From NCBI RefSeq assembly GCF_044324875.1, contig NZ_CP172185.1: a DNA stretch of 64,000 bases, one strand, 5' to 3'. Source of the DNA: Escherichia coli. GTDB taxonomy: Bacteria; Pseudomonadota; Gammaproteobacteria; Enterobacterales; Enterobacteriaceae. How positions within the stretch are numbered: the stretch's first letter is position 1; each line of letters begins with the position of its first letter. Below the pieces are notes generated by a model that made no database searches, was not told where the DNA came from, and saw only the letters and a program-made list of their open reading frames with translations. Both the position numbers and the translations under genes were made by a program. Below are positions 37,336 through 43,163 of this stretch, piece after piece.

Positions 37336-39432
37336 TTAGCGGAAATTGACGCTACGGTCGCTGGTCATGTCATACAACTGGAACTTACGCCCAAGTTGCT
37401 GACCACCGTCACGCGTCAGCGGCGTCCAGCCAATCGCCGCACGGCTGCGTGTCGGGCCAGACGAGAAGAGATCCAACGGTACAGAGACATACACGCCTTT
37501 GGTGAAGTCCCCTTCGCCGTACTCCTCTTTCGAAACGTTGGTGATCGTGGCATAGCCGCCAACCACCACGCCGCTGTCAAAGCGTTTGGCTATTTCCAGC
37601 GTGCCGCCTTTATCCCCTGCCAGATACTGCCCGACGCTCGCTTTCACTAACACATCCTGAGCAAAAGATGGCGTCCAGTAGGCGGTCAGATGTCCGGTTT
37701 TCACGCTGTAGTCGGTGAATTTCATCATATCTTTTGCACTACGCCAGTCGCGCTGTTTAACGTAGTTGGCATCCAGACCAAACGCCCAGTTGCTGTCCAG
37801 CGGGCGATACAACACTTCTGCCCCCGCACCGCCAAACATGGTTTCGAGATAACCACCGTAGACCTGACCGTAGAAGCCGTTGCCCAGATGCTGGAAGTAG
37901 TTGGCTTGCAGGTTATTCACATAGACATCATTCTGCACATACTCGCGCACATGGGTACGAACGCGCGGTAAGTGCGAGTCCTGCGGTGGATTGGTGTAGT
38001 TAAACTTGTCGTAGTTGTTGGCAAGATTTGCAAAAAGGCTGCCAGTGGTCAGCAGATGGTCCGTCAGCCACAAATCTGCCGTTCCCATCACGCCCAGCTG
38101 ATACATGTAAAAGTTTTCCGGGCCACCGACCGACTGGTTCAGCACCGGATCGATATGGAAATCAAAGCGTGATTTGTCGATATACCAGCCCTGCTCGGTG
38201 GACTGCGGAACCACTGGCTCGACGCGTTTTTGCGCCAGCGTCGTTTCGTGGCCCAACGGCTCTCCGGCGAGATGATTTTTCAGGCTGGCGACATCGGTTT
38301 CCGTCGTCACCTGCGGCATGTTAAGGCGATTTTCCGTAATGCGGATCGTTTTGATCCCATCCGGCAGATCGTTCATCACGATCCGATTAGCACGGATGAT
38401 CCCTTCACGCGAATCACGATATTTCACCTGCTCGCCGGTGACATACAGCGTATCGCCTTTCGCCTGGATCTGCGGATCGGCCAGTCCGGCGTTGTATTTC
38501 AACAGCGTTAACTGATTCGCCACCACCGAGTGCTGCAAAATGGCATCCTGCGACTGCGGTTGATATTGCGGGCGGGCGTTATCGTTGTAAGACGGGCGCA
38601 GATCGTTAAAGTTGGTGCGCAACGTAACGCCAAACATAAAGGTGTTGCCACGTTCATAGCTAAGGTTAACGTCGGCCCAATCGGTAACGCGATAAATCGC
38701 CCCGACGTTAAACTTACTTTTTTGCTCCAGCTTCCCGGCAAAATCCTGCTGATAATTATTACCTTCATACTCCAGTTTCAGGCGCAGCGGTTGCCAGGGC
38801 GTCTGGTATTCCACGCCGCCAAACAGTGAGGCAGGACCGTGGAACATCTGGCTACCGTCGATAGATCCCGCTTGTTTGTAGCTGTTATCGCGATAGCAAT
38901 ATTTATCGCTGGCTGAACAGAGCGGATTTTTTACATTACCGCTGGTGCCCAGATATCCCCAGCCCAGGCCGAGCGTAAAATCGAACGGCCCCCAGGCTTT
39001 GCTGGCAACAAGATATTCCGCATCAAACAGCCCCGTACCGCCGATATCCCGCGCACCAACCGCCACTTGCGGCAGCCAATAACTCTCTTCCCACAAACGC
39101 AGTTTGAGATCGAAGGCTTTATCTTTATACGTTTGATCACCAGAGAACGCTTCGACGCTGCTGTACTGCCGGGTGCGCACGTCGGTGTAGCGCAGCGTTG
39201 TTTCCAGCCACGGGAAGAGTTGCACTGAAGCTGAGTAATAACGGTACTGATCGTTATCTCGATAGTTCAGGCTCAACTCCCCTTCCCGCGCCATGCGCGC
39301 GGTGGGCGTTTGTAATAATCCTACGCCACCGAAATCCGACTGCGACGGACCAATGGGCGCAGGATATGTTTCGCCGTAGCAAGCTGTGCTAATGCCCAGC
39401 GCCAGTAAGCTAAGCAGATGTCTTTTTTTCAT
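37336..39432 (-). CDS. yjbH: YjbH, predicted outer-membrane protein of the yjbEFGH operon
   Basis: 698-aa translation [51 protein letters not shown]...; last gene of a four-gene same-strand cluster. Confidence 0.88.
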
Positions 39433-40169
39433 TATTGAGGTATCCGCTGCGTCAGAGTCTGAAGAATGTCGGCGTTAAGGGCATCAGGCGTCTCACTCCA
39501 GACGGAGTCCGCGAGGCCAACATAAATAATGCTGCCGGGCATCGGCTCTACGTGACGCTTGTTCCAGTAAGCCACCGGCGCTTTTTGCGTGCGTCCGTCC
39601 GGGTAAACCACCCACGCGTAGCTGCGATCCGCACTGCTAAGCAGGTTCTGGCCGGAGAGATAGCTTGCGACGTCGCGACCTGGAGTGAATGGCTGCTTGC
39701 CAGGACGGCTGATAAGCCCGAATAACGTGACCGTGGACGGCGGTGGTCCGACCCACAGCGTGTAGTTGCCCTGCAACGGCGGGTTACCGCGTTCAGCAAC
39801 GCGGACGATATCGGGATCAAGATTGATTTTTTGCCTGCCCGTCACCTTCAACGCCTGAATTTGCTGGCGTAAGGCGTTAATGGCGGCGGCATCGTCAGCG
39901 CTGGAGTCTGCGGCCAGTTCTGCCAGCCGTGTCAGCAACGCCTGCTGCTGACGCAATGCTGCCGCCGTTGCCAGCTCTTCGCTAATCACCGCACCGGGCC
40001 ACCAACTGTTTGCCAGCCGTGGTTGGCCTACCAGATCGATTAAATGCTCTGCACCCGTCAGCGTTTTGGCCTCACTGCTGCCATTGCTGAACACCTTGAC
40101 GGTTCCTGCCGCGAAGACCGATGACGCCCCCACACTCAAAATCAATGCGACAATAGTTTGTTTAATCAT
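39432..40169 (-). CDS. yjbG: YjbG (yjbEFGH operon)
   Basis: 245-aa translation [47 protein letters not shown]...; 4-bp start/stop overlap with yjbF. Confidence 0.88.
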
Positions 40170-40804
40170 TGTTTTGCCGCCTTGATGAGAGTGGTTTTCA
40201 CCGGGAAATAATCCGCGCCGAGATACTGTTCCGACTGGCGAATTTGCCCTTCGCTGTCGATCCAGTAGCGGTTATGCCAGCGCGCCTGGTCGGTGGAGAC
40301 TTCTTCGTCCAGCACGCGAACCGGGGTTTCATCGCTGCCGACTTTGACGGTATCGGTGCCATCCCATTTGAAGACTGAGCGTGCGGTGGCGTAGCGTACC
40401 TGCTGGTACTCGGTCCAGCCCATCGTGCGCGTCCATGTTGCACCATCAACAATTTGTGCGGGTTTAATCAGCGGGTCGGCAGCAAGGTTATTCACTTCAA
40501 TCAGGTTGTCGCCGCCAAGCAAAGTCTTCACCAGACGACCATGTTGTGTGACGAGAGTGGCCTGATCCTGAGTGACCCATTTTTGTTGTCCGTCTTCAGC
40601 AAAGGCCAGCACCACAAACAATTGCGGCCCGCCATTAAGCTGCATGTACTGGCTGGCGTAGGGCATATTTTGAATATCATCGTCCGTCAGCTGTACGCCT
40701 GGCGTGCCGAACAGACTGTCCCACAGCGAATTGCCCAGCTCTTTAGTCGTGGCTGAACAGGCCTGTAATAGCAGGCAGATAAGAATGAGTGCAGGTCGCT
40801 TCAC
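40166..40804 (-). CDS. yjbF: YjbF, predicted lipoprotein (GTG start; track ORF extends to 40834)
   Basis: (V)KRPALILICLLLQAC lipobox signal then SATTKELGNSLWDSLF... Confidence 0.85.
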   Translation of the reverse strand: MKRPALILICLLLQACSATTKELGNSLWDSLFGTPGVQLTDDDIQNMPYASQYMQLNGGPQLFVVLAFAEDGQQKWVTQDQATLVTQHGRLVKTLLGGDNLIEVNNLAADPLIKPAQIVDGATWTRTMGWTEYQQVRYATARSVFKWDGTDTVKVGSDETPVRVLDEEVSTDQARWHNRYWIDSEGQIRQSEQYLGADYFPVKTTLIKAAKQ

Positions 40805-40917
40805 GACTCTTCTCCAGAGGGGCAGAATAACCACACCGGAGTGTGGTTATGGTAAATCCCTTCATACTTCAAGCCACAGATGCAATGACTCGAATTATTT
40901 TGGGGATACATACTTTA

Positions 40918-41160
40918 TTACTGGGTACTGGTGGTCGTGGTTGTTGTGGTCCCGGTATTAGAACCATCACCGCCACCGGTTGCCGCGAGCGCGACACCCA
41001 CCGCCGAGCTTACGGTGCTGACGCTGGTCGCGGAGGAACTACCCGCCGAAACCGACGTTGCTGCCGACCCTGCCGCTTCGCCCACCTGTACAGGTGCAGC
41101 CCACGCAGAAGTCGCCGCAAGCGCAGATATGGCAAAAATGCCATACAGAACTTTTTTCAT
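40918..41160 (-). CDS. yjbE: YjbE, small secreted low-complexity protein
   Basis: 80-aa translation [47 protein letters not shown]...[12 protein letters not shown]. Confidence 0.85.
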
Positions 41161-41465
41161 AACAATTTCCCTTCATTGAATGAATGGAGATTTACCCAAA
41201 AACATTTCGGGCGGGATCGAGTATACACAACTAAAGCATGCGAATTACGGTGTGGGGAATTAGCGATGGGGTTTTAGGATAATTGGAATGAATATCAAAT
41301 ATAAGTTTCAACTTATATATAAATAAGATTAAAAATCAAAAAGTTAAAATAGAATCAAAAATAATCAACCTACGTATTTTCCGAAATCAATCACGATTAA
41401 AAATTTATTTTAGGATTAACCTCACAGCATGATTTCCGTTAAATCACAGACAAGGGGATTTATCT

Positions 41466-41492
41466 GATAAAAAATGCCGACATAACGTCGGC
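41466..41492 (-). terminator. Rho-independent terminator downstream of pgi
   Basis: Minus-strand GCCGACGTTATGTCGGC hairpin followed by ATTTTTTAT. Confidence 0.75.
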
Positions 41493-41513
41493 ATTGTTAT
41501 TAAGGTTATTTAA

Positions 41514-43163
41514 TTAACCGCGCCACGCTTTATAGCGGTTAATCAGACCATTGGTCGAGCTATCGTGGCTGCTGATTTCTTTATCATCTTTCAGCTCTGG
41601 CAGAATACGGTTCGCCAGTTGTTTACCCAGCTCCACGCCCCACTGGTCGAAGGTGAAGATGTTCAGAATCACGCCCTGAGTAAAGATTTTGTGCTCATAC
41701 AGCGCAATCAACGCACCCAGGCTGAACGGAGTGATTTCGCGCAGCAGGATGGAGTTGGTCGGGCGGTTACCTTCGAACACTTTGAACGGCACCACGTAGT
41801 CAAGCGTTGCCGGATCTTTACCCTGATCACGATATTCCTGCTCAACCACTTCGCGGGATTTACCAAACGCCAGCGCTTCGGTCTGAGCAAAGAAGTTAGA
41901 CAGCAGTTTCTGGTGATGATCAGAGAGCGGGTTATGGGTGATAGCCGGGGCGATGAAATCGCACGGTACCATTTTGGTTCCCTGGTGGATCAGCTGGTAG
42001 AACGCGTGCTGACCGTTAGTGCCTGGTTCACCCCAGATAATCGGGCCAGTCTGGTAATTCACGACGTTACCGTTACGGTCAACGTACTTACCGTTGGACT
42101 CCATATTGCCCTGCTGGAAGTACGCCGCGAAACGGTGCATATACTGGTCATACGGCAGAATCGCTTCAGTTTCCGCGCCAAAGAAATTGTTGTACCAGAT
42201 GCCAATCAGCGCCAGTAGTACAGGCAGGTTTTTCTCGGCAGGCGTGGTGGAGAAATGCTTGTCCATCGCGTGTGCGCCAGAAAGCAGTTCAACGAAGTTA
42301 TCAAAGCCGATGGAGAGAACAATCGACAGGCCAATCGCTGACCACAAAGAGTAACGGCCGCCAACCCAGTCCCAGAACTCGAACATGTTGGCAGTATCAA
42401 TACCAAACTCGCCAACGGCTTTGGCATTGGTTGAGAGCGCCGCAAAGTGTTTTGCAACGTGTTTTTCATCACCTGCCGCTTTCAGGAACCAGTCACGCGC
42501 GCTATGGGCGTTGGTCATAGTTTCCTGAGTGGTGAAGGTTTTAGAGGCTACCAGGAACAGCGTGGTTTCCGGGTTTACTTTTTTCAGCACTTCCGCGATG
42601 TGAGTCCCATCGACGTTAGAAACAAAGTGCATGTTCAGGTGATTTTTGTACGGACGCAGTGCTTCGGTCACCATGTACGGGCCGAGGTCAGAACCACCGA
42701 TCCCGATGTTCACTACGTCAGTGATTGCTTTGCCGGTATAACCCTTCCACTCACCGGAAATAATCGCTTCCGAGAAGGTTTTCATCTTCTCCAGCACCGC
42801 GTTGACTTCTGGCATTACGTCTTTGCCATCAACCAGAATCGGGGTATTGCTACGGTTACGCAGCGCTACGTGCAGCACGGCGCGGTTTTCAGTGCGGTTG
42901 ATCTTCTCGCCAGAGAACATCGACTTAATCGCGCCCGCCAGATCGCACTCTTTCGCCAGATCTTGTAATTTCGCCAGCGTCTCTTCAGTGATGCGGTTTT
43001 TGGAGTAATCCACCAGCATCTGATCGTCGAAGGTTGCGGAGAACTTAGAAAAACGATCGCCGTCTTTAGCAAAAAGATCGGCGATCGTAACGTCTTTCAT
43101 TTCATCGAAGTGTTTCTGTAGTGCCTGCCAGGCAGCGGTCTGCGTTGGATTGATGTTTTTCAT
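41514..43163 (-). CDS. pgi: Glucose-6-phosphate isomerase (track ORF extends to 43169 by an alternative start)
   Basis: Translation [63 protein letters not shown]... gives 549 aa. Confidence 0.98.

Follow-up and report, generated by a model that had tools for sequence, protein, structure and literature searches.

The group 4 capsule operon gfcABCDE-etp-etk begins with gfcA (ymcD), whose product, like YjbE, is a short, Thr/Ser-rich protein with a signal sequence, and gfcA is followed by gfcB, gfcC and gfcD, which encode paralogues of YjbF, YjbG and YjbH (PMC8592465; PMC11494523). The two systems differ in that GfcA is described as a protein of 101 amino acids, 30% of them Thr, compared with 80 amino acids in YjbE, and in that the gfc operon continues into homologues of wza-wzb-wzc, which yjbEFGH lacks (PMC8592465). 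The yjbEFGH operon itself has been tied to an exopolysaccharide distinct from colanic acid, to activation by RcsA-RcsB and to osmotic and envelope stress (PMC5461412; PMC5651002; PMC3599342), in agreement with the exopolysaccharide link drawn in a first-pass annotation of the DNA described here. GfcA is compared by its description, and the shared architecture is taken from profile matches to members of the YjbE family; the comparison is relevant to work on the small first genes of both yjbEFGH and gfcABCD.

The RcsAB box of capsule promoters reportedly has the consensus TaAGaatatTCctA, as Wehland and Bernhard are said to have described in 2000. The RcsB box has been given as TN(G/A)GAN4TC(T/C)NA (PMC7913699). 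An osmotic-shock activator, as yet unidentified, works at yjbJ and ybaY through a motif whose right half is the RcsB half-site TCCTAAAAT, and the reporter-assay preprint that describes it names yjbE as a candidate target (bioRxiv 10.1101/2025.05.13.653802). The spacer between pgi and yjbE is also the origin of the Rfam family RF02053, STnc430. According to its source table, STnc430 was predicted computationally in the pgi/yjbE spacer of Salmonella; each of the two cDNA libraries gave 0 reads, and the candidate was not probed on a Northern blot.

The DNA analysed here is a stretch of 64,000 nucleotides from Escherichia coli, hereafter the window, in which lysC on the plus strand is followed by pgi, yjbE, yjbF, yjbG and yjbH, all on the minus strand, and then by yjbT on the plus strand. 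The genes of the operon are as follows.

40918-41160, minus strand: yjbE coding sequence, 80 amino acids and stop codon (open reading frame list, Pfam, RefSeq)
37336-40804, minus strand: rest of the operon, namely the next three genes
40166-40804, minus strand: yjbF (PF11102)
39432-40169, minus strand: yjbG (PF20616 and PF06251, GfcC-N/GfcC-C)
37336-39432, minus strand: yjbH (PF06082)

The product of 40918-41160 matches the YjbE family PF11106 with 113.6 bits against a cut-off of 27.9 over residues 1-79 of 80, and RefSeq carries it as WP_000757333.1, YjbE, in five diverse E. coli strains (K-12-like, O157:H7, O2:H1 and two more). The open reading frame, the Pfam matches on all four genes and RefSeq together confirm the earlier assignment of this 80-residue frame as the first gene of yjbEFGH. 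For comparison, YjbF was used to fetch 80 orthologous loci, which represent about 25 genera of enterobacteria; yjbE is present in 79 of them and adjoins yjbF in all 79. The gene, its family and its control by Rcs are already known and are textbook-level for the field. The detail added here consists of a fixed run of seven Thr residues, a phase-locked promoter with three boxes and an Rfam family that is likely misfiled, and no new kind of system is involved.

The pgi-yjbE spacer is best read as an activator-dependent promoter of yjbEFGH with Rcs-type boxes in fixed helical phase and with the terminator of pgi at its far end, and this model of yjbE and its upstream region as a whole is given a probability of about 0.7. 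The features on the yjbE side of the spacer are listed below.

41161-41213, minus strand: predicted 5' untranslated region of about 52 nt with the Shine-Dalgarno sequence AAGGGA, counted from a putative start site
41220-41225, minus strand: candidate -10 element TATACT in the invariant block TTGTGTATACTCGATC, proposed from conservation
41272-41288, minus strand: box P (proximal), TTCCAATTATCCTAAAA, with a right half that is an RcsB-type half-site and a left half that is not
41281-41410, no strand: hyper-AT-rich core between boxes P and D1, 18.5% GC
41380-41386, plus strand: box D2, TCCGAAA, inverted relative to D1
41408-41424, minus strand: box D1 (distal), TGAGGTTAATCCTAAAA

An alignment of 76 orthologous upstream regions, other genera included, has shown that TATACT sits within a fully conserved 16-mer, and the 5' untranslated region of about 52 nt is nearly invariant across about 25 genera. 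Both the start site, at about 41213, and the assignment of the -10 element are inferred from the sequence. A scan for sigma-70 consensus promoters finds no passing site on either strand and no acceptable -35 element for TATACT, as is expected of an activator-dependent promoter. The 5' untranslated region does not fold better than chance (z = -0.59), its small hairpins being no better than those of shuffled sequences, and it is too invariant for covariation testing.

Boxes P, D2 and D1 all have the form TCYKAAA and lie roughly 66, 173 and 202 bp upstream of the putative start, and all three boxes and the -10 element are present together in 71 of the 76 orthologous spacers. The 14-mer TGAGGTTAATCCTA of D1 (41411-41424) agrees with the RcsAB box at six of six strongly conserved positions, and these positions (T1, A3, G4, T10, C11 and A14) are kept in nearly all 76 sequences. 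D1 differs from the RcsB box TNRGANNNNTCYNA by one mismatch, and position 5 of that box is never A in the yjbE orthologues. In boxes P and D2, only the TCYNA half of an RcsB site is matched. The search for RcsB boxes upstream of yjbE that the first-pass annotation had proposed has thus turned up three conserved TCYKAAA boxes, among which D1 appears to be a full RcsAB box. Like the RcsAB-box operators of capsule genes, D1 is complete at the six core positions and lies well upstream of an operon activated by RcsA-RcsB, making it a candidate operator of the same type. Unlike those operators, yjbE adds two half-site boxes, one of them inverted, which are phase-locked with the -10 element over a hyper-AT-rich spacer.

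Motif scores do not single out these sites. Allowing one mismatch, the highly degenerate RcsB motif has 35 matches in the window compared with 59 expected by chance, which is not significant alone, and a scan with the RcsAB motif is likewise not significant across the window by itself. The case for putative Rcs boxes rests on their conservation and position rather than on motif score. The shorter string ATCCTAAAA, which P and D1 share, has only two copies in the 64 kb, both of them in this spacer and on the strand of yjbE, against a chance expectation of 0.44 copies per window. The motif of the osmotic activator, compared here as described, has the RcsB half-site TCCTAAAAT as its right half, alongside which ATCCTAAAA of P and D1 can be set, and an unmatched left half; a single copy is described for the yjbJ/ybaY activator, compared with three boxes at yjbE. 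The yjbJ promoter lies in the window as well and carries AATAATCCTAAG. At about 19770-19800 on the minus strand, its sequence TTCTGAATAAATAATCCTAAG holds the core AATCCTAA that is common to the yjbE boxes.

The distances between the boxes change only in steps. The interval between D1 and D2 is 39-40 bp in 63 sequences or 29 bp in 7, that between D2 and P is 105-108 bp in 54 or 94-98 bp in 15, and that from P to the -10 element is 53-55 bp in 62 or 42-43 bp in 8, with four interval measurements in all outside these length classes. The classes are about 11 bp apart, so that helical phase is kept, and a tree of the adjacent coding DNA requires at least about 10 independent changes between them. 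The simplest reading of this phasing is that RNA polymerase and the proteins bound to the boxes would have to lie on one and the same side of the helix. Mutational bias or recombination of whole promoter alleles, rather than selection on phase, could also account for part of these steps of about 11 bp. The promoter can be regarded as a natural spacing experiment, in which the distances between boxes and -10 element have changed by whole helical turns only; such spacing would suit an activator complex that binds several sites and is specific for one face, and there may be a link to the osmotic activator of yjbJ/ybaY. In a plausible mechanism, RcsB, together with RcsA or another partner, would occupy the phased boxes on one face of the helix and would either recruit RNA polymerase to the weak promoter or relieve its silencing, and the hyper-AT-rich spacer would keep basal expression of yjbE low, plausibly through H-NS.

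The base composition of the spacer could also be explained without specific activators. The pgi-yjbE spacer (41161-41513, 353 bp) has 31.2% GC compared with 50.5% in the window and 46.2% in its pooled intergenic DNA, and it ranks first for AT-richness among the 41 spacers of at least 50 bp in the window. The extreme AT-richness claimed earlier for these roughly 350 bp is therefore above the local background, and the box array, the pgi terminator and the STnc430 match in the same region had gone unmentioned, as had the shortness of the spacer in this strain for want of the REP elements of K-12. The 18.5% GC of the core at 41281-41410 is the lowest 130-bp value in the 64 kb, and across genera the DNA between the boxes keeps a GC content of 18-36% and its quantised length while its sequence is free to vary; this DNA would be a compositionally constrained spacer and possibly a silencing platform. 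On these grounds the spacer could be a curved platform for H-NS, Fis or IHF, with nucleoid proteins rather than specific activators setting expression; the conservation of AT-richness without conservation of sequence is in line with this, as is the cited silencing by H-NS of the related gene rcsA.

Several observations speak against the curved platform. The A-tracts noted in the first-pass annotation are present, with ten A/T runs of at least four bases in the spacer, but they are no commoner than composition predicts, since mononucleotide shuffles give 6.8 +/- 2.2 such runs and 11% of the shuffles reach 10; these runs are thus a consequence of composition and not a separate feature. A periodogram of AA/TT steps in the spacer shows no excess at 10-11.5 bp, 595 of 1000 shuffles reaching the observed value, and the best rank of the region in a wedge-model curvature scan is an ordinary 240 of 3194 windows, the scan being no more than a heuristic. 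The suggestion of curved DNA is not upheld by these unphased A-tracts and this ordinary rank. H-NS is said to prefer a high-affinity motif, TCGATAAATT, reportedly defined by Lang et al. in 2007. This motif has no match with up to two mismatches in the pgi-yjbE spacer. The accessible literature contains no report of H-NS binding at yjbE, and H-NS silencing of its promoter is plausible by analogy and from base composition. The strongest conserved signals in the spacer are discrete boxes with phase-locked spacing, which indicate site-specific factors. It is therefore unlikely that nucleoid proteins alone set expression, and a nucleoid-protein layer can coexist with the activator-dependent promoter as a silencing layer.

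The half of the spacer next to pgi contains three further features.

41357-41505, plus strand: match to Rfam RF02053, STnc430, a predicted antisense sRNA
41460-41470, no strand: palindrome TTATCTGATAA, 11 bp, conserved across genera and abutting the T-run of the pgi terminator
41473-41495, minus strand: intrinsic terminator of pgi, a hairpin with T-run, its stem kept by compensatory changes across genera

The first of these raises the possibility that the distal half of the spacer encodes the sRNA STnc430, which would run antisense to pgi and yjbE as far as a bidirectional terminator, and that the conservation described above reflects RNA structure. The match scores 86.1 bits, above the gathering score of 47. 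Its place between pgi and yjbE and its strand with respect to these two genes agree with the Salmonella prediction, and it recurs in the orthologous spacer of 12 of 20 loci from other genera; in addition, transcripts arriving from both sides could be terminated by the hairpin at 41473-41495. However, the family is a prediction by origin, made in Salmonella and with 0 cDNA reads there, and a promoter-like site is found on neither strand. The consensus fold obtained with RNAalifold on 18 genera backs only the terminator stem, keeping the pgi terminator hairpin and one further stem of 3 bp. The long stem of the Rfam model coincides with the inverted repeat formed by D2 and D1, box D2 being one arm of it. 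The two arms vary independently within the degeneracy of TCYKAAA and do not compensate each other, as judged by eye in two aligned loci, and non-standard pairs are marked in this stem when the window is aligned to the Rfam model. The arms do not visibly co-vary, so that this mark of a conserved RNA structure is missing. The supplements of two transcriptome papers hold no entry for yjbE or STnc430. The terminator-only consensus fold and the independence of the D2 and D1 arms lead to the reading of the STnc430 match as promoter boxes plus the pgi terminator, which makes it probable that the Rfam family represents the footprint of a promoter and not an RNA, and a genuine sRNA in this place appears very unlikely. 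Another Rfam match nearby, to isrH at 40858-40904, is weak (17 bits, the gathering score being 45) and was dismissed as chance.

The pgi end of the spacer varies among E. coli strains. The palindrome at 41460-41470 has the conserved form TTATCNGATAA in the majority of the 18 aligned genera. In K-12, O157:H7 and many other E. coli strains, a REP/BIME cluster of 114-159 bp stands directly after the pgi stop codon and before the terminator. The strain of the window has no such cluster at the 41513/41514 junction, and because these elements are missing, its spacer measures 353 bp rather than 498 bp. The short form is found in about 11 of 29 full-length rows of an even E. coli sample. The REP cluster of E. 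whittamii (1663-1733 of its locus) matches the Rfam family naRNA4.

Two segments of the yjbE coding sequence bear on the function of its product.

41098-41160, minus strand: predicted Sec-type signal peptide, codons 1-21, read from the sequence
40930-40950, minus strand: run of seven Thr residues, T71-T77, read from the sequence

By eye, the N-terminus, with MKK, a hydrophobic core and AWA|AP, resembles a Sec signal peptide, and the A-x-A|AP pattern is kept in most YjbE orthologues. Five amino acids, namely Ala, Ser, Thr, Gly and Val, account for 79% of YjbE and for 88% of its predicted mature part of 59 residues, only two of which are charged. The earlier description of a low-complexity Ala/Ser/Thr/Gly/Val protein with a signal peptide is in keeping with this composition, and the poly-Thr tail is present as it was quoted. 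A query with the exact YjbE sequence against a collection of 15 billion proteins returned no entry, and a word-indexed homologue search gave mostly truncated or frameshifted variants; genome loci were used instead to follow variation of the tail. A profile search of 1.84 billion representatives found only 36 relatives of YjbE. The full-length relatives share a common plan of signal peptide, GEAAG-like motif, Gly/Ala-rich hydrophobic segment, GGGDGS and Thr run, and the signal peptide, the Gly/Ala-rich hydrophobic segment and the Thr-rich tail can be read in 65 distinct orthologues and 21 distant representatives. The AlphaFold model of YjbE is uninformative (pLDDT 48).

Of 5426 complete E. coli genomes, 5418 contain the 243-nt coding sequence of yjbE with at least 80% of its length aligned and an identity of at least 95%. 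Among 40 evenly sampled rows, 38 show a match of exactly 243 nt, one a match of 242 nt and one a partial match, and no length polymorphism of the Thr tract was found in these 5426 genomes and 40 sampled rows. Beyond E. coli, 71 of the 79 loci, which represent about 25 genera, have exactly seven Thr residues in the tail G-T7-ST, and the tail consensus of the orthologues ends in T7-ST(Q/R). The variation in poly-Thr length between strains that had been proposed as a check is thus absent. The idea that the poly-Thr tract is a slippage-prone simple repeat and yjbE a phase- or length-variable contingency gene, for which the seven-residue C-terminal homopolymer is the sole support, can be dismissed as next to impossible, since the run is spelled with mixed codons (ACC ACA ACA ACC ACG ACC ACC) and is not a pure DNA repeat, the coding sequence is full length in nearly all E. 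coli genomes, five diverse strains have one protein accession in common and the run is fixed at seven across genera.

The Thr run appears instead to be a functional element of fixed length, the opposite of a contingency tract, in a protein that is tightly constrained despite its 'low-complexity' sequence. The seven Thr residues are spelled by 45 different synonymous codon strings among the orthologous loci, the tail has a dN of 0 and a dS of 0.64, and the whole mature protein has a median dN/dS of about 0.05. Strong purifying selection acts on the amino-acid sequence of mature YjbE and of its Thr7 tail. That the tail is fixed at exactly seven residues in spite of saturated synonymous change points to a precise molecular fit rather than to a generic spacer. 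YjbE would most likely work together with YjbF, YjbG and the double-barrel outer-membrane protein YjbH in the export of surface polysaccharide, and its invariant Thr tail may be a site of recognition or modification. The N-terminal barrel of YjbH resembles the amyloid transporter FapF according to published fold recognition. A more specific and rather unlikely scheme is that YjbE serves as cargo or primer, in which case Thr7 would be O-glycosylated, the glycopeptide would be exported via YjbH and the 'Yjb exopolysaccharide' would in part be a protein-anchored glycoconjugate; a related idea has been floated for GfcA by Larson et al. (PMC8592465). The Thr7 tail is among the most constrained parts of the operon and is an obvious target for mutagenesis and glycoproteomics.

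The spacer between yjbE and yjbF contains one invariant feature.

40827-40850, minus strand: hairpin AUAACCACAC-UCCG-GUGUGGUUAU between yjbE and yjbF

This hairpin has a perfect stem of 10 bp and a UCCG/UUCG tetraloop. A stem of 9 bp is invariant in 12 of 12 aligned sequences (nine non-Escherichia genera, E. whittamii and two E. coli strains), and a U-rich run follows the hairpin in most genera. The hairpin may act as a partial terminator or as a stabiliser that sets the ratio of yjbE to yjbFGH. E. coli and E. whittamii have about 55 extra nucleotides between the yjbE stop codon and the hairpin (within 40851-40917, minus strand). These fold strongly, the z-score of the whole yjbE-yjbF spacer being -4.2, and strain HM670 carries a further insert of 72 nt at the same place (1145-1216 of its locus).

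Further observations concern the neighbourhood of the operon. The yjbH gene at 37336-39432 is intact in this strain and encodes 698 amino acids. Strain MEW is 100% identical to the window over 40800-41600, and its yjbH is annotated by RefSeq as a pseudogene with an internal stop. The two 64-kb stretches, compared without gaps, also lose register close to their start, so that the window does not come from the MEW assembly. The psiE gene directly adjoins malG at 36293-36385, and on the K-12 map xylE lies between malG and psiE, so this strain appears to be without xylE. Three islands of low GC, at 17685-18677, 26726-28306 and 60532-62718, carry genes of the DUF2713 and SopA families and espL4, which encodes a type III effector; they are the other AT-rich minima of the window and look like horizontally acquired insertions.
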